A stretch of DNA of 64,000 bases from an uncultured Chloroflexia bacterium (GTDB lineage Bacteria > Chloroflexota > Limnocylindria > Limnocylindrales > CSP1-4): NCBI GenBank assembly GCA_963813305.1, contig CAWEYP010000019.1, positions 130,727 to 194,726 on the forward strand, in the 5' to 3' direction. The notes beneath the pieces were generated by a model. It made no database searches. It saw nothing but the letters and a program-made list of their open reading frames with translations, and was not told the DNA's origin. Positions within the stretch are counted from its first letter, which is position 1; every line of letters begins with the position of its first letter. Below are positions 1 to 64,000 of the stretch, piece by piece. Position numbers and translations under genes: made by a program.

Positions 1-65
1 ACGACGCCGACGAGCAGGCCCACGATCCGCAGGAGGCTGATGTCGGCGAACATCGGTCCGGTCAC
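1..65 (-). CDS. N-terminus of a membrane protein running off the window edge (partial)
   Basis: GTG at 65 overlaps the upstream TGA (GTGA coupling). Manual translation gives MTGPMFADISLLRIVGLLVGV, which is hydrophobic. Confidence 0.45.
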   Translation of the reverse strand, partial: MTGPMFADISLLRIVGLLVGV

Positions 66-2169: not shown

Positions 2170-2220
2170 GCCCGTGGCGAGCGGATCCGAGGACAGGGTG
2201 ATGAGCCTCCGGTGGAGCCG

Positions 2221-6672: not shown

Positions 6673-6678
6673 GATCGG

Positions 6679-7836
6679 CTACGGCGCAGGCGTGGCCGAG
6701 GGCGCGGCGCTGGCGGCGGGGGACGGGGCCGGCGGCCATGTCGCACCCTTGCGCACCGGCGGGAAGTTCTTGGCGATCCAGGCCCGACAGATCTTGAGGT
6801 CGAGCTCGAACGCCGAGCCGCCCAGCTCCACCGTGTACGACCGCGGCCCGAAGACGACGCGCCTCGCCGATCCGAGCTTCGCCCGGCTGACGATGTCGTA
6901 GATGTCCTTGACCTTGTCGGATGGCAGGTCGGTGCGGACCGTGTCCGCGGCGATCCGCAGCAGCTTGGGAAGGACGGCCGGGCCCCGGTCGCGGACCTTC
7001 TTGAGAGCGGCCATCACGAGCAGCTGCTGGCGGCGAGCGCGCCCGAAGTCACTGTCGCCCTTGCGGCTGCGGGCCAGGACCAGGGCGGACTTCCCGTTGA
7101 GCTTGCTCGAGCCGGCCGGGAGGCCCCAGCCCTGCACCTTCGAGGTCACCCAGTAGTACGGGTCGTAGTACGCCTTGTCGAGCGTGACCGTCACGCCGCC
7201 GACCGCGTCCACCATGCGCCGGACGCCCTCGAAGCCGATGAAGACGAAGCCGTCGAGCTCGATGCGGAACGCCTTCTCGACCGCCTGCTCCATGGCGGTG
7301 TTGCCGTTCTTCGACGTCGCAAGCAGGTGCTGGTAGAGGGCGTTCGCCTTGCCGGCGTAGACGCCGCCGGCGGGCAGCGGGAAGTTGAGCGTGTCCCGCG
7401 GGATGGAGAAGGCGGCGGTCTTGCCGGTCACGGGATCCACCGACACGACCATGATCGCGTCCGTCCGGTTCCCGGGATGGGCGGGTCGATAGTCCGAACC
7501 GAGGAGGAGGACCGTGAACCGCCCGTCGGTGCCGAGGACCGGGTCGGCACCGGCGGGCGCGGGAGACGGTGTCGTCACGGCCTCCACCGAGGGAGCAGGG
7601 CTGGGCTCGGGGGGCAGGGCGGGCGGCGTCTCGCCCGGGGCGAAGCTCTGGGGGGTCGGCTCGGGCTCCTCCGACGCCGCGGCGGCAGGCGGGGAGGTCG
7701 GGGCCGGGCCTGCCAGGCCGGCGGCGAGGGCGAGGCCCAGGCCGCCCACGGCCACGGCCGCGACGACGAGGCCCCCGACGGCGAGCGCGCGGCTCGCGGG
7801 CCGCATCGCGCGCCAGGTGGTGCGAAGGTCGCTCAT
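6679..7836 (-). CDS. LCP (LytR-CpsA-Psr) family glycopolymer transferase
   Basis: N-terminal TM and Pro-rich linker, then LLLGSDYR...RTDAIMVVSVD, SIPRDT and ARSRKGDSDFGRARRQQ. Confidence 0.92.
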   Translation of the reverse strand: MSDLRTTWRAMRPASRALAVGGLVVAAVAVGGLGLALAAGLAGPAPTSPPAAAASEEPEPTPQSFAPGETPPALPPEPSPAPSVEAVTTPSPAPAGADPVLGTDGRFTVLLLGSDYRPAHPGNRTDAIMVVSVDPVTGKTAAFSIPRDTLNFPLPAGGVYAGKANALYQHLLATSKNGNTAMEQAVEKAFRIELDGFVFIGFEGVRRMVDAVGGVTVTLDKAYYDPYYWVTSKVQGWGLPAGSSKLNGKSALVLARSRKGDSDFGRARRQQLLVMAALKKVRDRGPAVLPKLLRIAADTVRTDLPSDKVKDIYDIVSRAKLGSARRVVFGPRSYTVELGGSAFELDLKICRAWIAKNFPPVRKGATWPPAPSPAASAAPSATPAP

Positions 7837-8007
7837 GTCACCGGACCGTAGCACACGTCACCGCACCCAACCCCGGGACGAAGGTCCCGCCGGCAAAGGA
7901 CATCCGGCCATGGGCGCGCGCGGTACGATGGCACCCTCGCTGGGGGCGGCAAGGAGGCGCATGCGCGTCCCGGGCGCAGAAACGACCACACGCGGAGGCC
8001 AGCGCGG

Positions 8008-9457
8008 ATGATCCGCCGGCACGCGACGACGCTCCGGCTCAGCCTCGCGGCCGTCGACTTCCTCTCGGCCATCGTCGTCTTCGTTGGCGTCAGCATCGTC
8101 CGCTTCGGGCCGGCATGGCGCGAAGCGTGGGACGCGGCCGCGGCCGATCCGTGGCTCCTCGCCCTCTCCTACGGCGCCGGATGGGTCGGGATCCTGTGGC
8201 TGCTCGGGCTGTACCGCCTGCGCGCCCGGTGGTCCTGGCGCACGGAGTGGACGGACCTCCTCCGGGCGATCCTCCTCATCGCCTTCCTCACGTTCGCCTT
8301 CCTCTTCGTCGTCAAGCTCCCGAACGTCAGCCGGCTCTTCCTGCTCTGGCTGTTCGTCACCCAGGCGGTGGTGGCGTTGGCCTCGCGCGGCATCCTCCGG
8401 CTCCTCTTCGCCCGCGCCCACGAAGCGGGGCGCAACTCCCGGTTCGTCCTGGTCATCGGCGACGGCCCCGGGGCCCACGACTTCGCGGCCAGGCTCGAAC
8501 GCAACGCGTATCTCGGCCTGCGGGTCGTGGGCTTCCTCGCGGATCCGCGGCCGGATGACGCGCGACCCGGTGCCGCCCCCGCGGCCACCGAGCCTGGACC
8601 ACTCGGGGGGTCCGCTCCCCCTTGGGACGTTGGGCCGGATCGGCGAGATCGAGGCGGTCCTGCGGTCGACGGTCGTCGACGAGGTCGCGATCTGCCTGCC
8701 GCCCGAGCACGGTGCATTCGTCGAGCCTGTCGCCCGCCTGTGCGAGGAGGAGGGGCTGGTGGTCCGCGTTCCGCTCGTGGCCGGTAGCACGGCGGTCCCC
8801 GGTGGGCGCCTCGAGGACTTCGAGGGGATCCGTCTCCAGTCGCTGGCTTACGGACCGGATCGGTCCCTGTGGTTGATCGCCAAGCGGCTCATCGACATCG
8901 TCGGCGCCGCTGCCGTCCTCGCCGTCCTGGCCCCGCTCCTCATCGGGGTCGCGGTCTTCGTCGCGGCTCGGGATGGGCGCCCGGTGCTCTTCCGGCAGAT
9001 CCGCGTGGGTGTCCGCGGGAGACCCTTCAAGATCTACAAGTTCCGAACGATGTACCGCGACGCCGAGGATCGATACGAAGAGGTAGCCGCGCTGAGCGAT
9101 ACCAGGGGAGCGGCCTTCAAGATGACCGATGACCCGCGGATCACGTCGTGGGGTCGAGTGCTGCGCAGGGCGAGCATCGACGAGTTCCCGCAGTTCCTCA
9201 ATGTGCTGCGCGGGGAGATGAGCATCGTCGGCCCGCGCCCAGCGCCGCCGCGAGAGGTGGCCGAGTACGACGTCTGGCATCGGCGACGCCTGTCCGTGAA
9301 GCCCGGCATCACCGGCCTCTGGCAGGTGGAAGCCCGGCTCGACGAGGACTTCGACCGACGAGCGCGCCTCGACCTGGACTACATCGACCGCTGGTCGCTC
9401 TGGCTCGACGTCAAGATCATCCTGCGGACGGTCCCCGCGATGTTCCGCGGCCGCTGA
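8008..9457 (+). CDS. Priming polyprenyl-phosphate sugar-1-phosphate transferase, WcaJ/CpsE-like (indel near 8600)
   Basis: N-terminal TMs and CoA-binding-like domain (VLVIGDG), then KRLIDI, FRQIRVG...FKIYKFRTM, DDPRIT, SIDEFPQFLNVLRGEMSIVGPRP, KPGITGLWQV and DLDYIDRWSLWLDVKII. Confidence 0.9.
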
Positions 9458-9471
9458 GGGCGGCGGAGCGC

Positions 9472-10872
9472 CTACGGGGCCGGAGACGCGGCTCCCGACT
9501 CCTTCTTGAAGTAGCGGCTGTCCTCGCCGAAGAGGCGGATGGACGCCTGCGCGAACTTCGCCATGTCGGGGACCAGGATGTAGGAGCCCGCGTTTCCCGG
9601 GTTCGTGGCGTAGGGCGGGCCCAGGACGATCTTCTTGATGTCCGCTTCCTCGATCGACCTGCCGAGATCCAGCATCTCCGAGAGCCGCGAGGCGGGGAAG
9701 TTGGTCTTGAGCGTGTCGCCGGCGGCATCGAGGATCGCCGGGAGCTTGGGGAGCATCGCCGGGTCGGTCATCTTCTTCTGGAGCGCCAGGAGGAGCTGCT
9801 GCTGGCGGCGCGCCCGGGTGAAGTCGTTGTCGCCGGCGCCCTTGCGCGAACGTACGAAGGCGAGGGCCTCCTGGCCGTCGAGACGCTGCTTGCCGGCGGG
9901 AAGGTAGAAGCCGATCTTCCGGCCGTCCGTCCAGCCGCCGTAGGAGGGGTCGTTGATCGCCCGCTCGTTGTTCACCGTGACCCCGCCGACCAGGTCGATG
10001 AGGGTCACGAAGCCATCCAGGTTGACAGCTGCGTAGTAGTGGACCGGGACGCCGACCAGGTAGCTCACCTCCTTGACCAGCGTGGTGGTCGGCCCGTCGG
10101 GGAACTCCTCCCGGTGGCGCCCCGCGTACGACATGAGGCTGTTGATCTTGCCGGTGAACGTGCCGCCCTTCCAGAGCGGGAAACGGGCCAGGTCACGCGG
10201 GATGCTGGCCATCGCGCCGGTCTTCGCCTCGGGGTCCACGCTGACGACGAGCAGCGTGTCCGTCAGGGCATGCGTCCGCGTCTCGGACGAATCGATCCCG
10301 GTGAGCAGGACGGTGATCCGGGACGCGACGGTCTCGGGCGTCTCGATGGGTGTTGCCCCGGCGATCGGGTCCGTGGGCGAGGTGGCGAGAGATCCGCCCG
10401 GCGATGCGCCGGGGTCGGTCGTCGGCAGGGGCACGTCGCCGCCACCGCCGCCCACGAAGATCTGGCTGCCGGCATCGTAGAAGGACCACGTGAGATACCC
10501 GAGGTACCCGTGCACCCCGACGACGGAGACTCCGAGGACAGCCAGAATGCCGGCGGCGAGGAGCATCCGGCCGCCGGATCGGCGGGCGAACAGCCAGGCG
10601 TCCGCCATCGCGACCAGGCGCCAGGCTCCCATGATGAGGCCGAGGATCAGCGCGGTCTGGGCGTAGCTGGGGTCGAAGAGATCCAGCGCCATGCCCTCGA
10701 GGCCACGAGAGGCAATCTGGACGGCCGCCCAGCCGAGCACCACGGCAACTGGCAGCGCGTAGAGCAGGGCCGAACGGTTGCGGCGCTGGTAGGCCTGTCC
10801 GAGGCCGGGCCAGAGGAAGGAGAGGAAGACGGCAACGGATGCCGAGCGGCCGCGCGCGGAAATCGAGGTCAA
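9472..10872 (-). CDS. LCP family glycopolymer transferase with a multi-TM N-terminus
   Basis: LLTGIDS...LTDTLLVVSVD, SIPRDL, YYAAVNLDGF and FVRSRKG..DNDFTRARRQQ. Confidence 0.92.
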   Translation of the reverse strand: MTSISARGRSASVAVFLSFLWPGLGQAYQRRNRSALLYALPVAVVLGWAAVQIASRGLEGMALDLFDPSYAQTALILGLIMGAWRLVAMADAWLFARRSGGRMLLAAGILAVLGVSVVGVHGYLGYLTWSFYDAGSQIFVGGGGGDVPLPTTDPGASPGGSLATSPTDPIAGATPIETPETVASRITVLLTGIDSSETRTHALTDTLLVVSVDPEAKTGAMASIPRDLARFPLWKGGTFTGKINSLMSYAGRHREEFPDGPTTTLVKEVSYLVGVPVHYYAAVNLDGFVTLIDLVGGVTVNNERAINDPSYGGWTDGRKIGFYLPAGKQRLDGQEALAFVRSRKGAGDNDFTRARRQQQLLLALQKKMTDPAMLPKLPAILDAAGDTLKTNFPASRLSEMLDLGRSIEEADIKKIVLGPPYATNPGNAGSYILVPDMAKFAQASIRLFGEDSRYFKKESGAASPAP

Positions 10873-11124
10873 GATAGATGCACTCTGACGGGGGAACGGC
10901 CGGGGCCGTGTGTCGTGGGTCGTGGGTCGTGGCAGGAACGCTACCGCATGGGACGGTGGCTGTCATGCACTCGTGACGCTGCCACGCCAGGGCGCCGCGG
11001 GCGGCGCCGCGCGCGATGCCGTCGCTGGCGACGGCGAGTCGCGTGGTCGTCAGGCTCCTCGCCACCGGGCGCACAGCACCTCCCGTGCGGACACGACATG
11101 CGTCATCACGCCGACGATACAGTA

Positions 11125-11295
11125 GTCGGTGATGTTGAAGCCCGGCGTGATCGCGTTGGCGGTCCCCCAGCCCGCGACCTCGCGGGCGACCGCCCTGGCC
11201 AAGCCGACGAGCCCGGGTCTCGATAACGAGTAGTTCGCCTGGCCGGCCTGGCCGGCCAGGCCCGAGACGCTCGACATGTTGATGATCCGGCCGGA
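11125..11295 (-). pseudogene. Decayed internal fragment of a FabG-like SDR
   Basis: SGRIINMSSVSGLAGQAGQANYSLSRPGLVGLARAVAREVAGWGTANAITPGF aligns to fabG at 19813-19974, with 37 of 54 columns identical by manual count. No N-terminal Rossmann motif; catalytic YxxxK reads YSLSR. Confidence 0.75.
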
Positions 11296-11328
11296 GGCCC
11301 ACAGTCCGACCGACACTCGCGCCGAAGG

Positions 11329-12432
11329 TCATAGATCGGTCAGCACTTCCCTGTAGACCATGGCCGTTTCGCGTGCCACCCTGGCCCAGCTCAGGCTGCT
11401 CACGCGATGCTTGCCCAGCGCGATCAGCTCCGCTCGTTGGTTCATCGCAGCCTCAACTCCCGCCGCGATCTCCGGGACCGAGAGCGGGTTCACCAGCACG
11501 GCCGCGCCGGCCGCCGCCTCCGGCAGGGACGATCGGCAGCTCGTGATCACCGGAACGCCCGCCGCCATCGCCTCGAGGACCGGAAGGCCGTACCCCTCGT
11601 ACAGGGAGACGTACGCGAACGCAGTTGCACCGTCCAGGAGCGCCTGCCGGTCGTGGTCTGACACATACCCCGGGAGGATGATCCGTTCGCGATATGGGCT
11701 GGCCTCGATGGCTCGCTCGATCGATTGCCACTTCCAGCCGCGTGCGCCAAGCAACAGGAGCCGGAGATCGGAACGGGCTTCAGCAAGGAGCTCGAAGGCG
11801 TGGATCAGCCTCACGAGGTTCTTGCGGGGTTCCAGGGTCGCGATCGACAGGACGTACGGCAGCTCCGCGAGGCGCAGCCGTTGCAGCACCGCCTGGCGAT
11901 CCGCGGCGGTCACCTCCGGCCCCGGAACGGGGGCAAGCTCGATCACATGGATCCGGCGCGGATCGACTCGCATGAGTCGCCGCAGCTCCACGGCGGTGGC
12001 CGTGGAAGGGACGATGAGGGCACGTGCACGACGAGCGGCCGCAATGATGATCGGGATCGTCGCGAGGCGGGGGAGCGGGTGCGAGCGAGCGTGCCTGATC
12101 AGGGATAGGTCCTGGACCGTCAGCACGAACGGGGTACGCGCGATCAGTGGCGCGCTGGCATTCGAGTAGTGCACGAGATCCGCGCCCACTCGCCGCGCGT
12201 CGCGGTCGGCCTCCCGCTGCAGCCATGCCTGGTAGAGCCTTCCGGACATGAAGGTCCGGTCGACGGCGCGGGACGCCGCGGTGGCGAGCGGCCCGTCGGG
12301 ACGAACGCCGATCAGCGCCGTCGCCTCGTACGACCCGTCGATCAGGGCCACTCCGAGCTCCCGGACGTAGACGCCCACACCGGTGGGCCGGACCTTGGCG
12401 GGACCCGCATCGAAGGCAACGGTAGTGGTCAT
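11329..12432 (-). CDS. Glycosyltransferase family 4 (group 1)
   Basis: FDAG...TGVGVY, TVQDL, TLEPRKNL and YEGYGLPVLEAMAAGVPV. ATG at 12432 overlaps the wzx stop. Confidence 0.9.
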   Translation of the reverse strand: MTTTVAFDAGPAKVRPTGVGVYVRELGVALIDGSYEATALIGVRPDGPLATAASRAVDRTFMSGRLYQAWLQREADRDARRVGADLVHYSNASAPLIARTPFVLTVQDLSLIRHARSHPLPRLATIPIIIAAARRARALIVPSTATAVELRRLMRVDPRRIHVIELAPVPGPEVTAADRQAVLQRLRLAELPYVLSIATLEPRKNLVRLIHAFELLAEARSDLRLLLLGARGWKWQSIERAIEASPYRERIILPGYVSDHDRQALLDGATAFAYVSLYEGYGLPVLEAMAAGVPVITSCRSSLPEAAAGAAVLVNPLSVPEIAAGVEAAMNQRAELIALGKHRVSSLSWARVARETAMVYREVLTDL

Positions 12433-13655
12433 GCCGTCATTCGCCACCGACCGCGCAGGGCGAGGAAGAAGGTGCCGAACAGGACGATCTCGATCCCGAC
12501 CGAGCACGCCGCGACGCCTTCGACGCCTGCAACCTGCAGTGCGAGCGGTTGCGCGACGACCGCAACCAGGAGGAGGACGATGCTCGTCCAGAAGGCGACG
12601 ATCGCCTGGCCTCGCGCCGCGAGCGCCTGGTTCATGAGGTAGCTCGGAAAGCCGAACATCGGGATCAGGGCGAGGATCCGGAGAATCGAAGCGGCGCCGG
12701 AATATGCGGGACCGAAGACGACCGTCATGAGCGTGGACGCCGTCACGAACAGGACGAGCGTGACCGCCAGGCCCGAACTGAACGCCACGAGCAGCCAGGA
12801 ACGCAGCGTCGACGTACCTGCCCGGCCGCCTGTCGTCGCCGAGGAGAACGCCGGGTAGAAGACGTTCGCGAGGGCTGCCGGGATCAGGTACGTCGGATCC
12901 AGCAGCCGGGCGGCCGCAGCGTACAGTCCGACCTGCGGGCCGGGCACCATCACCTGCAGGATCACGAGCGCGACGCGCGAGTAGAGCATGGCCGCCACGA
13001 CGGAGCCCCCGATCGGCCAGCTCCTCGCGAGGAGCTGGCGCGCCCGAGCGAGGCTCGGGCCACCGAACGGGACGAGGCGACTCAGGACCACCAGAGCGAA
13101 TGCCGCGGAGGCCGCACTGCCAAGAAGCCATGCGCCACCAATTGCCGCCGCGCCGAGACCAGCCAGCGCGACCGGCACGACGACGATGGCAACAGCCAGC
13201 CTCGGCACGATCGCGACGACCCAGTCATAGCGGAAGTGCCCGCCAGCGCGAAGCAGCCAGCCCGCGAACTGAACGATCGAGTCGAGGGCAAGGGCGAGCG
13301 CCACCATCGCGGCGCCGATGACCGGCCCGGTGCCGCCACCGAGCGCCACGACGCCCGCGAGCCCGAGGGCCACGAGCCCGAGGAGCCCGAGCTTCACGAG
13401 GAGAGCCGACGCGATCCGGCCGGGCAAGCCCTCCTCGGCCCTGGCTGCGTCGGCGGCCACGATGAGGCTCAGGCCGAGATCGCTCACCTGACCGAGCACG
13501 AGCCCTACCGCGAAGCCGACCATGAGCAGGCCGAACTGCTCGGGGGGGAGCGTACGGGCGACGACCACGACCACGACGAACTGCGTGGCACGCCCGGCGA
13601 TCTCCGCGCTGAGTCGGAGCCCAACCCGCCCGGCGGCGAGACCTTTCGCGCTCAC
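12429..13655 (-). CDS. wzx: Wzx-type oligosaccharide flippase
   Basis: 408 aa, about 12 TM, with ARTLPPEQFG, SDLGL, LYSRVALVIL and VGLYAAAARL. Confidence 0.82.
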   Translation of the reverse strand: MSAKGLAAGRVGLRLSAEIAGRATQFVVVVVVARTLPPEQFGLLMVGFAVGLVLGQVSDLGLSLIVAADAARAEEGLPGRIASALLVKLGLLGLVALGLAGVVALGGGTGPVIGAAMVALALALDSIVQFAGWLLRAGGHFRYDWVVAIVPRLAVAIVVVPVALAGLGAAAIGGAWLLGSAASAAFALVVLSRLVPFGGPSLARARQLLARSWPIGGSVVAAMLYSRVALVILQVMVPGPQVGLYAAAARLLDPTYLIPAALANVFYPAFSSATTGGRAGTSTLRSWLLVAFSSGLAVTLVLFVTASTLMTVVFGPAYSGAASILRILALIPMFGFPSYLMNQALAARGQAIVAFWTSIVLLLVAVVAQPLALQVAGVEGVAACSVGIEIVLFGTFFLALRGRWRMTA

Positions 13656-54050: not shown

Positions 54051-55613
54051 TCACCTCCACAGCTCCGCCTGGCGCTTCCGGTTCGCCCGCCCCGTCCGTG
54101 TCCTCGCGCCCCGCCCGCGATCCGCCAGGGCCAGGGAGACGAGCATCAGCTCGTTGACCTTGCGCTCGAACTCGGGCACCGTCGCCTCCGGGATCGTCAC
54201 GCACACCTCACGGAGCGCCGTCTCGAGCTGGTACCAGAGGTCGCCACGCCGGACCTCGTAGAGCGGGTAGGCGCTGTTGATGACGACCCTGCGGACGCCG
54301 TCTTCCTCGACCAGGGCGCTGCGCAGCCGGGGATCCAGGCTTCGAACGACCACCTCGGCCGCTCCGCGGCGACGTGCAGCCCCGGCGCCCCCGGCGGCTC
54401 CGTCGCGGGGAAGTCGGGGAGCCCCTTCGCGCGTCGCCGTCGTATCCGCACCGGTTGGCCCGTCGCCAGCTGCGCCGCGTTCGTTCGCTTCGTCCGGCTT
54501 CTCCGAAGGTCGACGCACTCCCTCCAGCGCGAGCTGGCCCCCGGGGCCGTCCTCACCCACCGGCACCTCCGATTCGAAGAGCCGCCCTTCCTCCAGGAGC
54601 CGAAGGGCCTTCGCGAGAATGCGCCGCACCTGGTGGGCTGTGCGCAGTGCCTCCGGCGTGACGGATGACGCCGGCTCGCGGGTCAGGCGACGGACCGGGG
54701 TCGCCAGCAACACGTGCAGCCGCGCTTCCACCGCAACCCACGCTGCGCTGCCCCGGTCGACATCGGCCTTGTTCATGGTGACCGGCACGTGCGGCAGCTC
54801 GATGGCTCCGACCAGGCGATTGAGAGCCGGGTGTGCCGCAGGAGTCGGGTGGCCGAGCCACTCCGGGGAGCCGATGAGTCGGCCCAGGTGGTAGAGGCGC
54901 ACGCCGCCTTCGGGGGCGCCGGGCCCCGGCGGCTCGGGCAGGAGTCCCCACCAGCCGCGCACAATCCGGCCGCCGGCCCGAACGGCCACGTCGTGGCGCT
55001 CGGCGAGCTCCCAGGATCGCGGCACCACCGGGCCGCGGTTCACCGTCAGCCGGACCGCACCGGCTTCCAGCAGCGGCCGGTAGACCTCGGCGAGGCGGTC
55101 TCGCAGCCGGCGCGCATCGACCGCCCGGTCCATCTCGCCGATCTCGATGCGGACATAGCCGAGCGCAGACTCGACGGGCTTCTTCCGGGGATGAAGCTCA
55201 TACGTGCGCAGGCGGGCCCGATCGCGGTAGGCCGGGTCGTCGAAGCCGAACGCGTGGTCATCGCCAGCAGCCGAGGCCACGACCTCGAAGCGGTTGCCGA
55301 GATGCCCGATCGCTGCCTTGCCGCCCTGGCCATAGCGCCCGATGCGCTGGCCGGACTTCTTCGACGATACGCCCCAGCGCAGGTAGTCACGCTCGATCGC
55401 TGCCGGTCCCATCCCACTGCCCCCGACGGCAGTGATCACAAGGCGTCCCGGGTGGACGCCGAGGTCGAGCTCGAGCGGTCGCCCGTCCACCCGGCTGTCC
55501 ACCGCGTTGTCAACGAGCTCGAGGATCGCTTCGATCGGCGACCGGTAGTTCGCGAAGAGCGCGCCGGTCAAGCGCGGGTCGATGCGTTCTCGGACGACGC
55601 GGCGGGATGTCAC
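54051..55613 (-). CDS. GHKL ATPase, MORC/HATPase_c_3-like, with S5-like domain
   Basis: ILELVDNAVDS, GSGM, IGRYGQGGK, then GGVRLYHLGRLI...LVGAIEL..VPVTMNK and C-terminal VVINSAYPLY. Confidence 0.82.
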   Translation of the reverse strand: MTSRRVVRERIDPRLTGALFANYRSPIEAILELVDNAVDSRVDGRPLELDLGVHPGRLVITAVGGSGMGPAAIERDYLRWGVSSKKSGQRIGRYGQGGKAAIGHLGNRFEVVASAAGDDHAFGFDDPAYRDRARLRTYELHPRKKPVESALGYVRIEIGEMDRAVDARRLRDRLAEVYRPLLEAGAVRLTVNRGPVVPRSWELAERHDVAVRAGGRIVRGWWGLLPEPPGPGAPEGGVRLYHLGRLIGSPEWLGHPTPAAHPALNRLVGAIELPHVPVTMNKADVDRGSAAWVAVEARLHVLLATPVRRLTREPASSVTPEALRTAHQVRRILAKALRLLEEGRLFESEVPVGEDGPGGQLALEGVRRPSEKPDEANERGAAGDGPTGADTTATREGAPRLPRDGAAGGAGAARRRGAAEVVVRSLDPRLRSALVEEDGVRRVVINSAYPLYEVRRGDLWYQLETALREVCVTIPEATVPEFERKVNELMLVSLALADRGRGARTRTGRANRKRQAELWR

Positions 55614-55637
55614 GTGCCCCTCGTGATTCGTCGTGCG

Positions 55638-56344
55638 CTACTCGCCGACCTTGATGAACGCCGCCGTGTACCCGGCGAGCGTCGGGCCGTCCATGCCGGT
55701 CCCGCGCGCCTCCCAGCTGAGGCCGGCGCCACCGTCGGCGAAGACCAGCCACGCCCCGCCGCCGGCGTCGACCAGGCGGGCCGGCCGGCCGCCGAACGAC
55801 GCTGTGCCGGCGTCGGGGCCGGCGGGACGCAGCCGGTCTGCCCGGCGCAGTAGTGCCCCTCGCGGATCGCAAGCCGCTGGCCGCCGGGCCCCTTGTACGA
55901 GATCTCCATCGTGCCGCCGCCGGAGAGGCGGAAGGCGCCGGTGTCGACGAACCAGCCCGCGGGCAGGACGGGGCAGTAGACGTCCCAGGCCACGTCGGCC
56001 GCGACCCCGGCGTAGAACGCCCGGTTGTCGTCGCTGCCGGTGCAGTCGGCGGCTGCCGGCGACGCGGTTGGACGGGGCGATTTGGTCGGTTCGCCGGGCG
56101 ATTCCGTGGGCTCGCCGGGCGTCGCCTCCTCCGTGGGGGTCGCCTCCTGGGTCGGCTCCTCCGTGGGCTCCTCGCTCGGGGTCGGCTCGGCCGTCGGCGC
56201 GGACGGCGAGGGCGCGGGCGTCGGCGCTGACGTGGAGCCTGGCGAGGGCGTGGCCGTGCCGCCACACGCGGCAACGAGCAGGGCCACGATGGCGAGGGCT
56301 GCGATCGCGCGCCGGGCACCGCGCGCCTCGATGGCTGGGGTCAC
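55638..56344 (-). CDS. Lipoprotein with Pro/Thr/Glu-rich linker and Cys-containing C-terminal domain (indel near 55820)
   Basis: Lipobox LVAAC and PTEEPTQEATPTEEATPGEP linker. ORFs 55610..56344 and 55638..56267 join. Confidence 0.7.
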
Positions 56345-56376: not shown

Positions 56377-57205
56377 TCAACGCACCACGTCGGACGGGGC
56401 GCCCGCCGGGCCCCCGGCGTGCGCGAGGTCGACGCCGAAGACGCTCCGCACCCGCTCGCGCGTCAGCACGGCATCGGGCGGGCCGTCGGCCACGACCCGG
56501 CCGCCATCGAGCACGACGAGGCGCGGGAAGAAGTGGCGCGCCAGCGCCAGGTCGTGGAGGACGGCGAGGATCGTGGTGCCGTCCCGGGCGTTGAGATCGG
56601 CCAGGAGCTCCATGACCGCGACCTGGTGGCGCAGGTCGAGATGGACGGTCGGCTCGTCGAGGACGAGGAGCGGCGCGGCCTGGGCGACCGCCAGCGCCAC
56701 GAGCACGAGCTGGCGTTCGCCGAGGGAGAGCTCGCGGGCGTCGCGGCCGCGGAGCCGGTCGATCCCGACCCGCGAGATCGCCGCGTCGACCGCGGCGAGG
56801 TCCGCGGCGCGCGGGCCCCGGATCGGGTCCTCGTGGGGGAGCCGGCCGAGGGCGACGACCTCCTCGACGCGGGTCGAGAACGGGATGCTCGCCTGGCCGG
56901 GGACCGCCGCGAGGCGGCGGGCGATCGCCGGCCGGTCGAGCGACGCGACGGCGTCGCCTCCGAGCATGACCCGGCCGCTGCGCGGGACCACAAGCCCGGC
57001 CAGGACCCGGAGCAGGGTGGACTTCCCGGCGCCGTTCGGTCCGACCAGGGCGACCCGCTCGCCGGGGGCGATCGCGAGGTCGATGCCGCGCAGGACCGTC
57101 CGGTCGCGGTAGGCCACGACCACGTCCTCGAGGAGCGCGATCGGCGCCGGCCCAGCGGGCGGCCGCACGTCGAGCGCAGGGTTCGCCGCGCACGATCGCG
57201 GTCAC
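56377..57205 (-). CDS. ABC transporter ATPase, FecE/BtuD-like
   Basis: GPNGAGKST, LSLGERQ, LDEPTVHLD and VLHDL. Confidence 0.92.
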
Positions 57206-58281
57206 AGCTCGTACCCGCCGCGCGCCGAGCGCAGGAGGGCCAGGAAGAACGGCGCCCCGATGACGGCGGTCACGACGCCCACCGGGATCTCGCCGAGGAG
57301 GCGCGCCACCAGGTCGGCGGCCACGAGAAGGACGGCGCCCAGGATCGCGCTGAGGGGCAGCACGTTGCGCGCGTTCGGCCCGACGACGAGGCGCACGAGG
57401 TGCGGCGCGACGAGGCCGACGAACCCGATCAGGCCCGACACGGCCACCGCCGCGGCCGTGACGAGCGTGGCCAGGCCGAGCAGGATCCGGCGCTCCCGGC
57501 GGACGTCGATCCCGAGGTGCGCGGCGGCCTCCTCGCCCAGCAGGAGGCCGTTGAGCGACCGGGCCCGGAGCAGGATCGCGATGCTGCCGCCGATCACGAG
57601 CGGGGCCGCGATCGCCGAGGCGCATCCACGAGGCACCCTCGAGGCCGCCGAGCAGGAAGGCGAAGATCTGGCGCAGGTTGGCCCCCGACAGGTACATCGT
57701 CATCGCCAGGCCAGCGGCCAGGAGCGAGCCGACGGCGTAGCCGGTCAGCAGGAGGCCCGTCAGCGGCGCCAGGGGACCGCCGCGTCCCAGGCGATAGACG
57801 ACGGCAACGGCCGCGACCGCGCCGGCGAAGGCGAACACGTTGAGGAGCCCGACCCCGAGGAGCGCGACCCGGACCGGGATGAGCACCGCGATCGCCGCGC
57901 CGAGGGCGGCGCCGGACGCCGTCCCCAGCACGTACGGGTCGGCCAGCGGGTTGCGGAGGAGCCCCTGGAACGTGACGCCGGCGACCGCCAGGCCGGCGCC
58001 GACGACGACCGCCGTGAGGACGCGCGGGAGCCGGAGCTCCGTGACGATCGTCTCGGCGGCCGGGCGTCCACGTCCGCTCGACCGGCAGGCCGATGGCGCG
58101 GAGGAGGATGCCGATCGTGTCCCCGGGCGCGATGGAGACGCTGCCGGCGGCGATCCCGACCACGACCACCGCGGCGAGGACGAGGAGCCCGAGCGACGAC
58201 CAGGACGGCCGGACGGGGCCCGCCGGCGGGGCGCCGGACGCGCACCCGCCCGAGCGCCAGGCTCCGGCCGCCGATCGTCAT
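57202..58281 (-). CDS. FecCD/BtuC-type permease (several indels)
   Basis: LRLPRVL, FQGLLRNPLADPYVLG, LLLGEEAAAHLG, IGFVGLVAPH and EIPVGVVTAVIGAPFFL. Confidence 0.92.
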
Positions 58282-58290
58282 CCCGGTCCC

Positions 58291-59359
58291 CTACCCGCCG
58301 GTCGCCGGCACCGACGGCAGCGGAGCCGCCGGATCGATGGCCAGCGCCAGGGCCCGCAGGCCCTCCGACCAGGCGCGGGCCCGGCCGCGTCACGACCACG
58401 TCGTCGACGGGACGGATCGCGCCGGACTTCACCGCGGTCATGCCGCCCCAGCCGGGACGGGCCGCGACCTGCTCGGCCGTCGCCGCCGTAGGCGGCGTCG
58501 CCGAGGACGATCACCTCGGGATCGGCCGTCGACCAGCGTCTCCAGCGGGATCGAGAAGACCGTCGGGCTGCCGGTCGTGATCGGCTCGCCGCCGGCGAGG
58601 GTGATCATCTCGGCGTACAGCGACTCCGCGGCGGGGCCGTAGATCGTGCCCTGGTACAGGTCGAGCTCGTAGAAGACGCGCGGCCGCGGGCCCCCGGCCG
58701 CCGCGATGCCGCTCGCGATCGCGTCGATGTCGGTCCGCATCGCGCCGGCGAGCTCCGTGCCCGCTGCGCCCTCGCCGGCCGCCGTGGCGACGAGCTCGAT
58801 GTCCGCGAGGACGGTCGCCACGTCGGGCGCGTAGACGACGAGCACCGGGATCCCGACCGAGCGGAGCTTCGTGAGCGCCTCCGGGCTGTTGAAGCCGTTG
58901 CCGCCGGCGAGGACGAGGTCGGCTTCGAGGCCGACGATCTTCTCGACGTCGATCGCGCCCTGGGTCGACCACGCGGGTGATCGCCTTGGCCGCGGCGGGG
59001 TGGTCGTCGGCGTCCGTGGCGCCGACGACGCGATCCCCGGCACCGACGGCAAAGAGGATCTCGGTCGTGGCGGGCGTCAGCGAGACGATCCGCGCCGGCC
59101 GGGCCGGCAGGGTGACCGCCGTCCCCTCGTCGTCGGTGAGGGTCATCGGGTAGGTCGCCGCCGCGGGGGTGACGGACGGCGTCGGGGTCGCGGTCGCGGC
59201 GGGAGTGGCGGTGGCGGCGGGAGTGGCGGTCGTGGCCGGCGACGTCGTCGCGGCACCGCCGCACCCGGCCAGCATGGTGAGGGCCACGACGAGCGCGACG
59301 AGGGTCGCGATCGCGGGCGGAGTGGCGGCGCGGGCGCGCCGGGACGGGAAGTGACGCAT
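58291..59359 (-). CDS. Cobalamin-binding lipoprotein, BtuF-like (indels)
   Basis: Lipobox LAGC, YPMTLTDDEG, RIVSLTPATTEILFAVG, DVEKIV and RPGPR. Lies downstream of a B12 riboswitch. Confidence 0.88.
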
Positions 59360-59484
59360 GGGGAACCTCGCTGTCGGGATCGGAGGAAGCGGGCGCGCCG
59401 GGCGCGCCGACGGACGCGAGGTCCTAGGTGACGGTGTACACGCCTGCCTGCCCCTTTCTCTCGAGGGTGTGAGCGGCTGCACCG

Positions 59485-59585
59485 TGGGGCCGGCGACCGG
59501 ACTTCCGTCCCGGAGGGGACGGTCACCGTAGCGGGACTGTGCCGGATTCGCACCGGCTTCGCGACCACGCGGTGGGTCTGGATGA
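59485..59585 (-). ncRNA. Cobalamin riboswitch, compact form
   Basis: Minus strand GCGAAGCCGGTGCGAATCCGGCACAGTCCCGCTACGGTGA-CCGTCCC(ctcc)GGGACGG-AAGTCCGGTCGCCGGCCC matches the P4 T-loop, P5/P6 and B12-box layout. It lies upstream of btuF-like, with an extended -10 TGcTACGCT just upstream. Confidence 0.88.
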
Positions 59586-59624
59586 CGGGCGGAGCGTAGC
59601 ACGGCCGGGCTGGACGGGAGGGGG

Positions 59625-59652
59625 CCGAACGGCCCGGATTCGGTCCGTTCGG
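59625..59652. promoter_or_regulatory. Near-perfect 12-bp inverted repeat between divergent transcription units
   Basis: CCGAACGGCCCG-gatt-CGGTCCGTTCGG, 11 of 12 paired. Confidence 0.5.
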
Positions 59653-59781
59653 GCTTGCCACGGGGCAGCGTAAGCCGCCGATAAGTGCCGCCCGGCAGAC
59701 TCCGTCGGAGCGGCGTCGTCCGGCGCCGCAGGCCCCGCCTCCTCCCGCCCAGGCACGCCCCGCCGGAGGAGGTCTCACCAG

Positions 59782-60537
59782 ATGTCGCCAGGACGCTGGA
59801 CCCGCCGCTTTGCCGCCGTGCTCGTCGCCGCCTCGCTCGCCGCCTCGCTCGCCGGCCCGGCCCGCGCCGGCTACCAGGGCACGGTCGCCTCGAACGAGAG
59901 CGCGTTCGAGCCACCCTGCCTCACCTTTGACGATCCCTATCCCGAGAAGATGCAGAAGGCCGCGGCGACTGCGTTCGCCGCGCTCGGCTACGAGACCCGC
60001 TCGTACACCGGCGCCGCCTTCACCCGTGCGGCATACCTCGCCCGGACGGCCAACGACTGGGGCACGTACGTCCACAGCCATGGCGATCACTACTGGCATG
60101 CCGCGGACGGTCGCCGGTACGCGGGCTTCCGCGAGGACTCGGGCGACTGCAGCCAGGCGGTCGTCTACTCGAAGGACATCGCCCTCAAGCGGGCTGGCCG
60201 GCAGTCGAGCCTCGTGGTGATGTCGATGTGCCACGTCGGCGAGGACGGCTCGACCATGCCCGGCGCCTTCGGGATCGCGAAGAAGCGGTACGCCAGCGGC
60301 GCCTGGGGCGGGCCGGAGTTCTTCGTCGGGTATCTCGGCGCGGCCTGGGACAACGACGAGTGGACCTTCGAGGTCGCCTTCTGGGACGCCATCGGGCCCG
60401 GCTACGGGACGGGCGAGGCGTTCGACGTCGCGGCGGCCCGGGACTTCGCCCATCCGTTCGACGCGAACTGGTGGGGCTCCTACGACTACACGGGCCGGGC
60501 GGGGCCGCTCCCCTCCGGCTGCGACCGGTGCCTGTGA
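59782..60537 (+). CDS. Secreted caspase/CHAT-fold (clan CD) cysteine peptidase-like protein
   Basis: Signal peptide, YVHSHG (His100) and LVVMSMC (Cys150), FFVGY followed by FEVAFWDAI...GEAF, and C-terminal CDRC. Confidence 0.7.
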   Translation: MSPGRWTRRFAAVLVAASLAASLAGPARAGYQGTVASNESAFEPPCLTFDDPYPEKMQKAAATAFAALGYETRSYTGAAFTRAAYLARTANDWGTYVHSHGDHYWHAADGRRYAGFREDSGDCSQAVVYSKDIALKRAGRQSSLVVMSMCHVGEDGSTMPGAFGIAKKRYASGAWGGPEFFVGYLGAAWDNDEWTFEVAFWDAIGPGYGTGEAFDVAAARDFAHPFDANWWGSYDYTGRAGPLPSGCDRCL

Positions 60538-60547
60538 GGTGAACGCC

Positions 60548-61474
60548 ATGCCTGTCTTCCGACACGTCACTCCGACGCCCCCGCCGCCTCGCGCCGATCG
60601 CCCTCGCGGCGGCGGCCGCCGCCCTGCTGGCCGGCGGGCCGGCAGGGCCCACGCCCGGCGGCGCCGTCGACCGGTACCAGGCCGGGGAGGCGGCGATCGT
60701 ACGCTCCGCCGTTCCGGCGGGCGCCGCGGCCGGGATCCGCGAGCGAGGCCTCGCCCAGGCCCGCGCCCTCGGCGTGCCGGCCGGCGCCGCGCACGCGGCT
60801 GACCCGGCTCCGTGACCGGTTCTCCGGCGCGGTGCTCGACGAGGTGGTCACCACCGACGCCGGCGGGCGGAGGCTCGGGCCTCGTCCGCCTCGCGGCGGA
60901 CGGCCGCCTGGCGACCGCGATCCGCCTCGGCTGGCGCGCCCCGACGGGTCGCCGGATCGACGCAGGACGGGCGCGGGCGCGGGCGGTCGCGCTGGCGGCC
61001 GCCGCGGGGATCGCCGGCGCCGGCACGCCGCGCGCCACGCAGATCGCCGATGGAGGCTGGCGCGTCGCCTGGGAACGGAGCGTCGACGGCGTGCCGGTCC
61101 CCGGCGACGGCAGCACGATCACGCTGTTCGCCGACGGCACCTTCCACGCCGCCGTCCACCGGGAGCGGCCCCTCGCCGAGGCGCCGGCCACGACCCTGGA
61201 GCGCCGCGCGGCCGAGCGGATCGCCGGAGATCGCCTCGGCACGCTCCTGGGCGCCTCGCGCGGCCAGGCCCGGATCGTCGGGGCGCGCCTCGCCTGGGTC
61301 GCCCCCAACGACACGTTCGACGCGGCGGCGCCGGACGCCCCGGACCCGATCCTCCGCCTGGCGTGGATCGTCGAGGTGCGCACGGTCGCGCCGCTCGCCG
61401 GGCGCCTCCGCGCGCTCGAGCTGTACCTGGACGCCGGCGACGGGTCCCTGCTCGGCGGGGACCTCCTCCGATGA
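60548..61474 (+). CDS. Secreted protein with FTP/PepSY-like (or YcdB/C-like) domains (indels at 60570-60870)
   Basis: Ala-rich signal, WERSVDGVPVPGD..TITLFADG, and ARLAWV...LRLAWIVEV...LYLDAGDGSLL. Confidence 0.65.
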
Positions 61475-62607
61475 CCTGGCTCCCGCCGACCCCGCCCCCC
61501 TCCAGGCCCCCCGGACCTTCCGGACCTTCCGCCTCGCCGGCCGGAAGCGGCACGGTCCGCGGCATGGCTGCGGTGGCGGCCGCCGCGACGCCCGTCGTCG
61601 CGGCGGCCCTCCTCGCGGTCGCCCTCGTCGCCACGGGCTGCCGGCCACGCGTGTCCTCGCCCGGCCCGTCCGACGAGCCGTCCGGGGCGGCGACCGCGTC
61701 GGCGGCCGCATCCCGCCAGCCGGGCGTCGGCCCGGCGTCCCCGGACGCAACCGGGATGCGCCTGCTCCTGCTGGTCGGTGCGCCGGCCCGGCCGCGCGCC
61801 GCCGTCCACGACCTGGCGCAGCCCGGCGAGCCGGGTGTTCCCCTCGACCTGCCGGATCCGCTGCGCGATGGCGGGCTTGCGACCGTCGTGGCGGCCCCGG
61901 ACGGCCGGCTTGCCGCGGTCGGCCAGGACGGCGCCGCGTGGCAGGCGCCGCCACCCGCGCGCAACCCTGCCGGCGCGCCGGCATGGACGCCGCTCCCCTC
62001 GGTCGCGAAGGAACCCGGGCTGCCTGGGCCCGTGCTCGGCGGGACGTGGAGCATGGACGGATCCACGCTGGTGCTCGTCGCGGGCGGGCCCGGCTCGGGA
62101 ACGCGGCGGACCGCGATCGTGTCCGTTCCCGGCGATGGGTCCGCACCCATCTCGATCGAGGTCCCGCTCGAGGCCGACGGCCCGGCCATCGCGGCCCTGC
62201 CCCGCGGCGTCGTGGCGTTCGTCGGCCGCGACCTCCGCGACCGCGGCGTGCTCGCCCGGATCGCCGCGTCCGGCTCCTTCGCGACGCTGCCGGTTGCCGC
62301 GCGCGGGGTGGCGGCCGGCGGCGGGCTCGTCGCGATCGTCGCCGACGACGCGGTCCGGGTAGGCACGCTCGACGAGCTCGACCGCGGCAGGCTTCCCATC
62401 GAGCCGCTGCCCCTCGAGGGACCCGACGGGATCGGCGCCGTCGCGATCGCCCCCGACGGGACGGCCGTCGCGGTGGTGCGCCTCGACGACGAGGGGAGGG
62501 CCGCCCGCGTCGATGTCCTCCGCCGCACGGACGGCGCGTGGGCGGCGTCGTCATCCCTGGCGCTCGACCCGCGGGACGGCAGCGCGATCGTCGGGTGGCT
62601 TCCCTGA
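61471..62607 (+). CDS. Lipoprotein with probable beta-propeller
   Basis: Lipobox VATGC and blade-like units AAPDGRLAAV, WSMDGSTLVLV, IAPDGTAVAVV. ATGA overlap. Confidence 0.65.
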   Translation: MTWLPPTPPPSRPPGPSGPSASPAGSGTVRGMAAVAAAATPVVAAALLAVALVATGCRPRVSSPGPSDEPSGAATASAAASRQPGVGPASPDATGMRLLLLVGAPARPRAAVHDLAQPGEPGVPLDLPDPLRDGGLATVVAAPDGRLAAVGQDGAAWQAPPPARNPAGAPAWTPLPSVAKEPGLPGPVLGGTWSMDGSTLVLVAGGPGSGTRRTAIVSVPGDGSAPISIEVPLEADGPAIAALPRGVVAFVGRDLRDRGVLARIAASGSFATLPVAARGVAAGGGLVAIVADDAVRVGTLDELDRGRLPIEPLPLEGPDGIGAVAIAPDGTAVAVVRLDDEGRAARVDVLRRTDGAWAASSSLALDPRDGSAIVGWLP

Positions 62608-62613
62608 CGCGGA

Positions 62614-62642
62614 TGCGAAGGACCCGGCACAGGGCCGGGTCC
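62614..62642 (-). terminator. GC-rich hairpin between convergent genes
   Basis: GGACCCGGC-acagg-GCCGGGTCC, a perfect 9-bp stem with only a weak U tract on the minus strand. Confidence 0.55.
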
Positions 62643-62680
62643 AGGGCGGCGAGCGCGGCCGGCGGGGCCGGCAGGGTCGC

Positions 62681-62962
62681 TCAGTTCGCGGCGGCGGTCT
62701 CCTCGACGGCCGTGAAGATGGAGACCTGGGATGCCTCCGGGAGCATCTCGCCGAGGATCTTCTGCAGGGTCAGCTGGTGGACGCAGCTGTTCCAGCTCTC
62801 GAAGTAGTGGCACGTGCAGTGCCAGGCACCGGCGTCGAGGCTCACGTGATGCGTGTCGTTGTCACCCCGGAACGTGACGCCGAGGCGATCGAACGTCAGG
62901 CGGTCGCGCTCGCGGGCGTAGCGATTCGCCTTCTCGACCTTGCCGATGAGAGAGCTGTGCAT
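62681..62962 (-). CDS. Small standalone SWIM zinc-finger protein (93 aa)
   Basis: MHSSLIGKVEKANRYA...WHCTCHYFESWNSCVH (CxC-x8-CxH). RBS-like GGAGGG upstream. Confidence 0.8.
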   Translation of the reverse strand: MHSSLIGKVEKANRYARERDRLTFDRLGVTFRGDNDTHHVSLDAGAWHCTCHYFESWNSCVHQLTLQKILGEMLPEASQVSIFTAVEETAAAN

Positions 62963-63099
62963 CGTCGAGATCCCTCCGTGGCCCGTGGGCCGTTCCAGAG
63001 GCCGCCGGCCGGCCGTGCGCTCGTCGGTCGGGGAGGGCGGTCGTACCCGGAAGCTCGACGTACCCGGCGCCAGAGAGGGACCCGGTCGGCCGCGGAGGA

Positions 63100-64000
63100 T
63101 CAGCCGCGGACGAGCGCCTCCCCGGCGGCGAGGCAGGCATCGGCGACGTCGGCCGAGGTGGCCTCCGACGTAGACCCGGACCAGCGGCTCCGTGCCGCTG
63201 AAGCGGACCAGCAGCCACGAGCCGTCGCCGATGAAGAACTTGAAGCCGTCGTTCGTCGAGAGCTCGACGGTCCGGGTGACGGGCTGCCCGGCCAGCTCCG
63301 TCGGCGCCTTCTCGACGAGCTCGACGGCGAGGCGGTCCTTCATGGCGGGGTAGGTCGCCCGGTCCACGTGGACGTCCACGCGCTGGTAGAAGGACGGCCC
63401 GGCGATCTCGTGGAGGTGGGCGATCGCCGCGGAGACCGGCCAGCGCCCGGCGGCCCGCTCGCGCAGGAAGAGGTCGAGCAGGAGCAGGTCGGCGTAGATC
63501 CCGTCGCGCTCCGGCAGGTGCATCCCGAAGCCGTATCCGCCGGACTCCTCGCCGCCGTACATGGCCCCGGTCTCGATCATCTTCGGCCCGACGTACTTGA
63601 AGCCGACCGGCGTCTCGTGGACCGCGATCCCGTAGTGCGCCCCGAGCCGCTCCGCCATCGACGTCTCGTTGACGCTCTTGACGACCGGCTGGCGCATCCC
63701 GCGGTGCTCGGCCAGGTAGTACATCAGCAGCCCGTAGACCTGGAGCTGGTGGACGAAGACGCCCCGCTCGTCGATCGCGCCGGCCCGGTCGGCATCGCCG
63801 TCGAGGAGAAGCCCGAGGTCGAAGCCGCCCGCCGGCGACGAGGCGCAGCGCCTCGTCGATGTGCGGGCGGATCGGCTCCGGGTTGACTCCGCCGAAGTAC
63901 GGGTTGCGCTCCGTGTGGAGCTCGACGACCTCGATCCGCCCGCCCGCGAGGAGCCGGCTGATCCAGCCGGCGCCGGAGCCCCACATCGGCTCGACGAGGA
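63100..64000 (-). CDS. Phosphoglucomutase/phosphomannomutase family, 3' part (partial, indels)
   Basis: DGDADR metal loop, ETPVGFKY, GGEESGG, ERDGI, DGFKF and VRFSGTEPLVRVY. Confidence 0.92.

Follow-up and report, generated by a model that had tools for sequence, protein, structure and literature searches.

The window analysed here, a 64,000-nucleotide (nt) stretch of DNA with a G+C content of about 75% from an uncultured soil Chloroflexota bacterium of the class Limnocylindria, carries at its 3′ end three co-directional genes on the + strand, which were delimited by open reading frame (ORF) analysis and by the G+C content at third codon positions (GC3). Gene 1 (59782..60537, +; protein P0001) is preceded by a ribosome-binding site, GGAGGAGG, 10 nt upstream and encodes 251 amino acids (aa), of which approximately 222 make up the mature part; ORF and translation are accompanied by a GC3 of about 0.9 in frame. 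Gene 2 (60548-61474, +) starts with the ATG at 60548, 11 nt past the gene 1 stop. Gene 3 (61471..62607, +; protein P0004) encodes a predicted beta-propeller lipoprotein of 378 aa, and its start overlaps the gene 2 stop (ATGA). All three proteins bear predicted export signals. Our comparison of related loci reveals that genes 1 and 2 form an obligate, translationally coupled core pair, whereas the propeller gene is frequent but dispensable. A scan for promoters and terminators gave no match.

Fold and putative dyad of the gene 1 protein

The hydrophobic N-terminus of the gene 1 protein is a predicted Sec-type signal peptide (residues 1-29; 59782..59868, +) in which A-R-A stands before G30-Y31. 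In the gene 1 family an AxA-type triplet precedes a conserved A-Y-Q, and this triplet is ARA in 44 of 94 members. An AlphaFold2 model built with a 94-sequence alignment reached a predicted local distance difference test score (pLDDT) of 91.4 and a predicted template modelling score (pTM) of 0.84; its N-terminal helix is of low confidence. Since strand β1 (residues 31-37) starts two residues past the predicted cleavage site between ARA and G, the protein appears to have no pro-domain of its own. According to DSSP, the elements of the model follow the order β1-α1-β2-α2-β3, three short strands (residues 101-129), then α3-β4-β5-α4-α5-β6. In the clan CD fold, five helices accompany six main strands, a mini-sheet of three strands is inserted between β3 and α3, and the dyad consists of a His on L3 and a Cys on L4 (PMC4357240). 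The gene 1 model displays both this element order and this dyad placement. The putative catalytic His, in the motif YVHSHG, is part of His100-Gly101 (cat ggc, 60079..60084, +; His codon 60079-60081) in the loop after β3 (92-98), and the putative nucleophile Cys150 (tgc, 60229..60231, +), in the motif LVVMSMC, lies in the loop after β4 (144-148). A Foldseek search of the model against the PDB returned 43 matches at E<=1e-3, the best of which was the filament-forming SAVED-CHAT protease 8tl0 (E 1e-7); the other listed matches included procaspase-8, the CHAT anti-sigma factor DdvA, caspase-9/7/1/11, GSU0716 and MALT1, and every listed match at this threshold is a caspase-fold protein. On the basis of the model, the assignment of a caspase-hemoglobinase fold with the dyad at the canonical sites is solid.

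Conservation was scored on 152 near-full-length relatives of 31-90% identity. Of these, 149 retain H100, 149 G101 and 149 D102, and 151 retain C150; the HSHGD motif contains a further His, His98, which is retained less often (145/152). The number of Cys residues in the same relatives is odd throughout, namely five, or three where C247 and C250 are jointly lost. This implies one unpaired Cys and fits a free Cys150 together with two disulfides, which are likely C46-C123 and C247-C250; the terminal C247-x-x-C250 is present in the window protein. The earlier note on this DNA had described a secreted ORF of 251 aa with His100-Gly and Cys150 each following a hydrophobic strand, a caspase- or CHAT-like fold and a terminal CxxC. 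Those residues can be read directly, the strands agree with the DSSP assignment, the fold proposal is borne out by the model and its structural matches, and the dyad is strengthened by its near-invariance among relatives.

Altogether, 254 gene 1 homologues were collected, all of about 251 aa in length, and the family is represented by 97 cluster representatives in a library of 1.84 billion proteins. No informative domain fusions were found among the long distant matches (P0142, P0150, P0163, P0215 and others), several of which resemble frame-fused gene calls. Searches with hidden Markov models (HMMs) gave no match above the cut-off for the named clan CD families (C14 PF00656, C13, C11, C25 PF01364, C50, C80 and CHAT PF12770), and sub-threshold Pfam Peptidase_C25 matches occur in 2 of 94 members (best E 0.0016). 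A conserved K-x-K is located at 60283-60297 (residues 168-172, KKRYA), with K169 kept in at least 90%; in the loop that joins Cys150 to β5, it comes before the part that varies most, and it would be a candidate activation-cleavage site if the enzyme were Lys/Arg-specific.

The gene 2 protein and the propeller lipoprotein

In 72 related loci, gene 2 is uninterrupted and encodes 285-336 aa in one ORF. The window copy was mapped in pieces by all-frame translation and by tblastn with intact orthologues. The start piece (60548..60572, +, frame 2) begins MPVFRH..., and the orthologues begin M-x-x-F-R at the same site. The second piece (60573..60791, +, frame 0) contains RRLAPIALAAAAAALLAGG, the predicted signal/anchor segment, and the beginning of module 1, corresponding to orthologue residues 12-84; the third (60793..60879, +, frame 1), TRLTRLRDRFSGAVLDEVVTTDAGGRRLG, aligns to orthologue residues 85-113; and the fourth (60878..61474, +, frame 2) comprises an FTP-like module, GWRVAWERSVDGVPVPGDG, and a C-terminal PepSY-like module, LDAGDGSLLGGDLLR. 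All pieces are free of in-frame stops and share 62-73% aa identity with the orthologues (tblastn). The earlier note had taken the ORF at 60812-61474 as a free-standing FTP/PepSY-like partner; the fold holds up, but this ORF covers only the C-terminal two thirds of the gene.

The structural model of a gene 2 orthologue, built with a 71-sequence alignment, has a pLDDT of 89 and consists of three modules, each of one helix and four strands, which come after an N-terminal hydrophobic anchor. Significant Foldseek matches in the PDB were limited to pro-peptide chains, namely 3nqz_A and 3nqy_A, the pro-peptide of vibriolysin MCP-02, and 4k90_B, the pro-peptide of the Aspergillus fumigatus fungalysin Mep. 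The alignment covers the entire 175-residue pro-peptide with a probability of 1.0 and 17% identity, and it is the last two modules that can be superposed on the FTP-PepSY pro-peptides of M4/M36 metalloproteases. Among the 71 orthologues, weak Pfam matches were obtained for FTP in six (best E 0.0066) and for PepSY in two (E 0.16). The FTP match in one distant cassette (L099) falls on residues 192-215 with 12.8 bits against a cut-off of 21 and coincides with the WR.EW.R.DG.PV.DG motif of module 2, which points to the module order PepSY-like, FTP-like, PepSY-like. Neither the orthologue L004 nor the C-terminal piece from the window gave a Pfam match to FTP (PF07504) or PepSY (PF03413), the window piece had no match in NCBIfam either, and a PDB sequence-profile search with gene 2 yielded no useful match. 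A hydrophobic N-terminus is found in 71/71 orthologues and a lipobox in five. As modelled, the gene 2 product is a protein of three PepSY/FTP-type modules that is tethered to the membrane at its N-terminus, as a lipoprotein in some lineages. The family is annotated solely as "hypothetical protein" and was found only in Chloroflexota/Limnocylindrales records.

We also considered that the conserved gene 2 tail (GGD-x-x-R) might plug the active site of the gene 1 protein. This idea was rejected, as the tail forms the last β-strand of module 3 in the model and ends in any of several residues (R, E, S, D). Covariation of this last residue with position 187 of gene 1 was seen, but as the two classes each form a clade of their own, it is confounded by phylogeny.

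The gene 3 protein carries a predicted lipobox, L-V-A-T-G-C57, with the Cys57 codon at 61639..61641 (+). Cys57 is kept in at least 90% of the alignment, and of 59 orthologues, 49 carry a motif resembling a lipobox. The profile of these 59 orthologues matched the WD40 protein 2ymu in the PDB with an E value of 1.8e-19 in 12 stretches, and TolB with about 1e-8. PD40 repeats were recognised in 14/59 orthologues and WD40 repeats in 6/59, and one orthologue matches the LpqB propeller family; the window protein alone had no Pfam or NCBIfam match. The family is fast-evolving, with a mean identity of 25%. Sequence profiles and the lipobox together show gene 3 to encode a beta-propeller lipoprotein, lipidation being predicted, and the coupled propeller lipoprotein described in the earlier note is thereby confirmed in its ATGA overlap, its lipobox and its propeller character.

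Gene pairing, distribution and flanking genes

For synteny counts 80 genome loci were kept, nearly all of them titled as metagenome-assembled genomes (MAGs) of Chloroflexota/Limnocylindria, with two labelled otherwise (Methylomirabilota, Verrucomicrobiia). Genes 1 and 2 are adjacent in 80/80 of these related loci as well as in five distant cassettes, either overlapping or separated by a few to about 40 nt, and in 58 related loci the last 4 nt of gene 2 are shared with the start of gene 3. Since most of the 80 loci also share the flanking genes, including those for phosphoglucomutase (PGM) and a SWIM-type protein, the divergent cassettes are more telling for the pairing. In these, the gene 1 homologues have 30-37% identity and are found in other contexts, next to thrS-infC, transposases or fatty-acid genes, and a gene 2 homologue and a third lipoprotein gene are retained. 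The gene 2 homology is supported by hhalign probabilities of 100 and 99.8 (E 1e-41 and 1.5e-30). The co-occurrence of enzyme and partner that the earlier note had suggested thus extends to loci in which the surroundings differ.

The third position is occupied in one divergent cassette (L093) by a distant homologue of gene 3 and in another (L095) by a gene for a Kelch propeller lipoprotein (Kelch_1, E 3e-34). In a further cassette (L098), the third gene (5788-7050) encodes a lipoprotein of 420 aa in which the S-x-D-G-x-x-W (Asp-box/BNR-like) motif was recognised six times, by eye only; this protein had no Pfam or PDB match and may represent a third propeller type, its Asp-box-like character being unconfirmed. 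The L095 cassette (1-12756, with the gene 1 homologue at 6001-6756) is flanked by an integrase, Mrr, and Mu-type and mutator transposases, and this copy may be mobile. An additional PepSY protein of 297 aa (Pfam E 4.4e-10) is encoded 2 kb upstream in the same locus.

A streamlined sister family with genomes of 1.1-1.4 Mb (L105-L107, L097) keeps only genes 1 and 2, located between btuF and PGM, and its gene 1 protein has no C-terminal CxxC. In a sample of the class, the gene 1 family was detected in 54 of 301 genomes; these include 10 of the 11 sampled members of the window's genus, and the streamlined family is also represented. When 401 genomes of the phylum were sampled, every occurrence fell within the window's order.

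Upstream of gene 1, a divergent adenosylcobalamin (AdoCbl, B12) riboswitch (59441-59587, -; Rfam RF01482, 50.8 bits) heads a btuF-fecCD-ABC operon (about 56377-59300, -). At the end of this operon, a lipoprotein of 244 aa with no family assignment is encoded at 55610-56344 (-); it has a lipobox (LVAAC), a Pro/Thr/Glu-rich linker and a Cys-containing C-terminal domain. In at least six loci without btuFCD (e.g. L049, L053, L055, L058, L066, L080), a homologue of this lipoprotein gene is situated directly upstream of gene 1 in divergent orientation. Downstream, a small SWIM-like gene (62714-62962, -) is convergent on gene 3 and is followed by the PGM gene. Its product of about 91 aa contains a C-x-C-x9-C-x-H motif and is 69-100% identical in 70 of the 80 related loci, with the PGM gene invariably adjacent. 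The SWIM-type gene and gene 3 are both missing from the streamlined family.

Proposed mechanism, rival readings and known systems

Based on these models and on the conserved gene order, we propose that the module encodes an extracytoplasmic clan-CD-type cysteine peptidase or transpeptidase which is folded, tethered and checked in trans by the gene 2 protein, with the propeller as an exchangeable adaptor; we give this reading somewhat better than an even chance. In this hypothetical scenario, (i) the gene 1 protein would be an active enzyme that lacks its own pro-domain; (ii) the gene 2 protein would, in trans, help the enzyme to fold, tether it to the membrane and restrain it as a latch or inhibitor, in a role modelled on the thermolysin-type pro-peptides, which act in cis, and on YpeB, the closest functional precedent, which acts in trans on SleB; and (iii) the propeller would bind a substrate or a releasing ligand. 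The gene 1 family has an S-T-C-H-x-G motif, which we take to resemble the metacaspase motif D-S-C-H-S-G. This motif and the many invariant acidic residues lead us to guess at a preference for Arg/Lys in the P1 position and, on the same basis, at an activating cleavage of the post-Cys150 loop at its K-x-K. Because the pair is retained in streamlined genomes of 1.1 Mb, our analysis favours a role in cell-envelope housekeeping over nutrient scavenging. A more specific version, in which the tethered PepSY/FTP latch restrains a minimal caspase-fold protease at the cell surface until the enzyme is released to act on particular envelope proteins by a ligand or by an envelope signal that the interchangeable propeller lipoprotein senses, would amount to a surface proteolytic switch, and we consider it rather unlikely in this full form.

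Several observations speak against the proposed reading. The gene 1 protein had no Pfam or NCBIfam match at E<=1, a PDB sequence-profile search with gene 1 returned no relevant match, and the TM-scores of the Foldseek matches are moderate (about 0.5). Using hhalign, the gene 1 family gave no significant match to a 45-sequence CHAT alignment (E 0.11). Binding of the gene 2 protein to the gene 1 protein is suggested by synteny and by analogy. The propeller gene is missing in the streamlined family, and its loss there indicates that the propeller is not essential to the mechanism. Finally, gene 2 is split over reading frames in the window, with three changes within approximately 330 nt.

With respect to the CHAT family, hhalign likewise gave no significant match to one CHAT protein (E 0.57). 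The best path against the CHAT alignment, at its non-significant E value, pairs Cys150 with the CHAT Cys. In view of the two E values, we do not claim membership of the gene 1 protein in this family.

The frame changes in gene 2 could mean that the window copy is a true pseudogene and that the module is decaying and non-functional in the source genome. Against this stand the aa identity that the pieces retain with intact orthologues and the absence of in-frame stops from them, as well as the neighbouring genes, which are broken alike within 8 kb (three shifts in BtuF, two in FecCD and one in PGM). Moreover, the assembly is only 56% complete at 2.85 Mb, compared with 91-95% for relatives of similar size. 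We therefore regard decay as very unlikely; given the similarly broken neighbours and the low completeness, the breaks most likely represent assembly indels. The nearest genomes compared share only about 76% DNA identity. From the pervasive breaks across 56400-64000 of the window, the assembly probably contains many single-base indel errors, and ORF-based readings elsewhere in this genome consequently need frame-tolerant checks. A different reading of gene 2 would make its product a membrane anchor or sensor of the YycH/YycI type, or a substrate of the gene 1 protein, in place of an inhibitor or chaperone. PepSY-like folds occur also in non-inhibitory envelope proteins, for example of the YycH/YycI type, and the hydrophobic anchor in all 71 orthologues, the lipobox in five and the sub-threshold FTP/PepSY sequence matches agree with such a role. 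In favour of an inhibitor or chaperone, every significant structural match is to a genuine pro-peptide chain spanning FTP and PepSY, the gene 1 protein comes without a pro-domain, with β1 two residues past the cleavage site, and the tight translational coupling fits a stoichiometric partner, and an anchor, sensor or substrate role thus appears doubtful.

The gene 1 protein could also be a sortase-like transpeptidase that both processes surface proteins and anchors them, as opposed to a protease with a degradative or signalling function, with the propeller presenting the acceptor and the gene 2 protein serving as a scaffold. There is a precedent in PorU, a C25-family protein that works with the double-propeller protein PorZ in the type IX secretion attachment complex (PMC8545088, PMC5121618). 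The clan CD fold and dyad are compatible with transpeptidation, propeller lipoproteins are repeatedly coupled to the pair, the rare Peptidase_C25 matches point in the same direction, and retention of the pair in 1.1-Mb genomes suggests envelope housekeeping. However, these C25 matches are sub-threshold, no substrates with sorting signals were identified, the propeller is lost exactly in the genomes in which a housekeeping role would be most expected, and the gene 2 protein resembles protease pro-peptides and no component of PorU/V/Z, which makes sortase-like anchoring improbable in our view. The neighbourhood of the module invites yet another interpretation, namely cobalamin capture, with the gene 3 protein as a BtuG-like B12 binder and the gene 1 protein freeing B12 from carriers. 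The AdoCbl riboswitch lies close by, and among the 80 related loci 67 have btuFCD as the divergent neighbour, as does the streamlined family. The riboswitch is oriented towards the other operon, though, and btuFCD is not adjacent in at least six judgeable loci and in all four distant three-gene cassettes (L093, L095, L098, L099), where genes 1 and 2 are still paired; the entire region, including the PGM and SWIM genes, is simply syntenic in the window's taxonomic order. We rejected the link to B12 uptake as mere synteny and hold cobalamin capture to be extremely unlikely.

The reading of an enzyme checked in trans by a pro-peptide-like partner would bring together parts that are each known. 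Clan CD enzymes such as caspases, metacaspases, gingipains, legumain and CHAT proteases are central to cell death, immunity and virulence, and Limnocylindria are an abundant uncultured lineage of soil and freshwater. To our knowledge, the exported members that occur in bacteria are large, consist of several domains and carry a pro-domain of their own. In the module described here, a near-minimal caspase fold is predicted to be exported alone and is invariably paired with a protein of pro-peptide fold. Every single fold in the module is already known; according to the literature searched, what is new is the uncatalogued, minimal, exported caspase-fold family of gene 1, what appears to be an obligate pairing of a caspase-fold protein with a separately encoded FTP/PepSY protein, and the occurrence of different beta-propeller types at the third position. 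The gene 1 and gene 2 families are dark matter, found within one order of Limnocylindria in the sampled genomes, and the retention of the pair in the 1.1-Mb genomes hints at an envelope function there. Should the partner prove to be a chaperone-inhibitor, the safety catch provided by PepSY/FTP modules would no longer be limited to zinc proteases and one spore lytic enzyme but would extend to cysteine proteases, and the pair would offer a clean case of an in-trans pro-domain and a small, tractable scaffold for studies of caspase-fold catalysis.

Among known systems, CHAT proteins (PF12770; 8TL0, DdvA 8ROT) are the closest structural matches of the gene 1 protein (E 1e-7 to 7e-5). Both have a His-Gly after β3 and an S-x-C after β4, and the local motifs are similar, with FHYSGHT and FSACNSG in a Limnocylindria CHAT protein compared with YVHSHGD and MSMCHVG in the gene 1 protein. 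Known CHAT proteases are cytoplasmic components of defence or signalling systems, whereas the gene 1 protein is predicted to be exported, bears putative disulfides, measures only about 222 aa, is devoid of sensor or repeat domains and has no HMM match. With caspases, paracaspases and metacaspases (MEROPS C14) it shares the order of strands and helices, the mini-sheet between β3 and α3 and the L3/L4 dyad; it differs in its predicted secretion, has no relationship to them at the sequence level and gave no evidence of β6 dimerisation or inter-subunit linker cleavage. Gingipains and PorU (MEROPS C25) are likewise bacterial extracytoplasmic clan CD proteins, PorU acts together with the beta-propeller protein PorZ, and the weak C25 matches in 2/94 members belong to this comparison. 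In contrast to them, the gene 1 protein is far smaller and lacks Ig-like domains and a type IX secretion system (T9SS) C-terminal domain, and its setting departs from that of PorU in the PepSY/FTP-like partner, the phylum and the envelope. The gene 3 protein is similar to envelope propellers of the TolB/PD40, WD40 and LpqB types in its profile match, its PD40 repeats and its predicted lipoprotein anchoring; unlike TolB, it has neither the TolB N-terminal domain nor a Tol-Pal context, and a Kelch propeller substitutes for it in one lineage.

For the gene 2 protein, the FTP-PepSY pro-peptides of M4/M36 metalloproteases (3NQZ chain A, 4K90 chain B) provide the structural counterpart, since the model superposes over their whole length and in the same order, FTP-like and then PepSY-like. 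It departs from these pro-peptides in being separately encoded and membrane-tethered, in its additional N-terminal module and in its sub-threshold Pfam scores, and its cognate enzyme would be a Cys/His caspase-fold protein and not a zinc metalloprotease. The M4 FTP-PepSY pro-peptides have been proposed to act as chaperone-inhibitors, and YpeB, which is membrane-anchored in Bacillus spores, has PepSY domains proposed to embrace, stabilise and inhibit SleB in trans, an action explicitly likened to that of the M4 pro-domains (PMC13556211). SleB is a cortex-lytic peptidoglycan hydrolase in a spore-specific system, and there is no sequence relationship between the two systems. What SleB-YpeB and the module described here have in common is their arrangement, in which an enzyme gene is followed, in the same operon, by the gene for a membrane-anchored PepSY protein.

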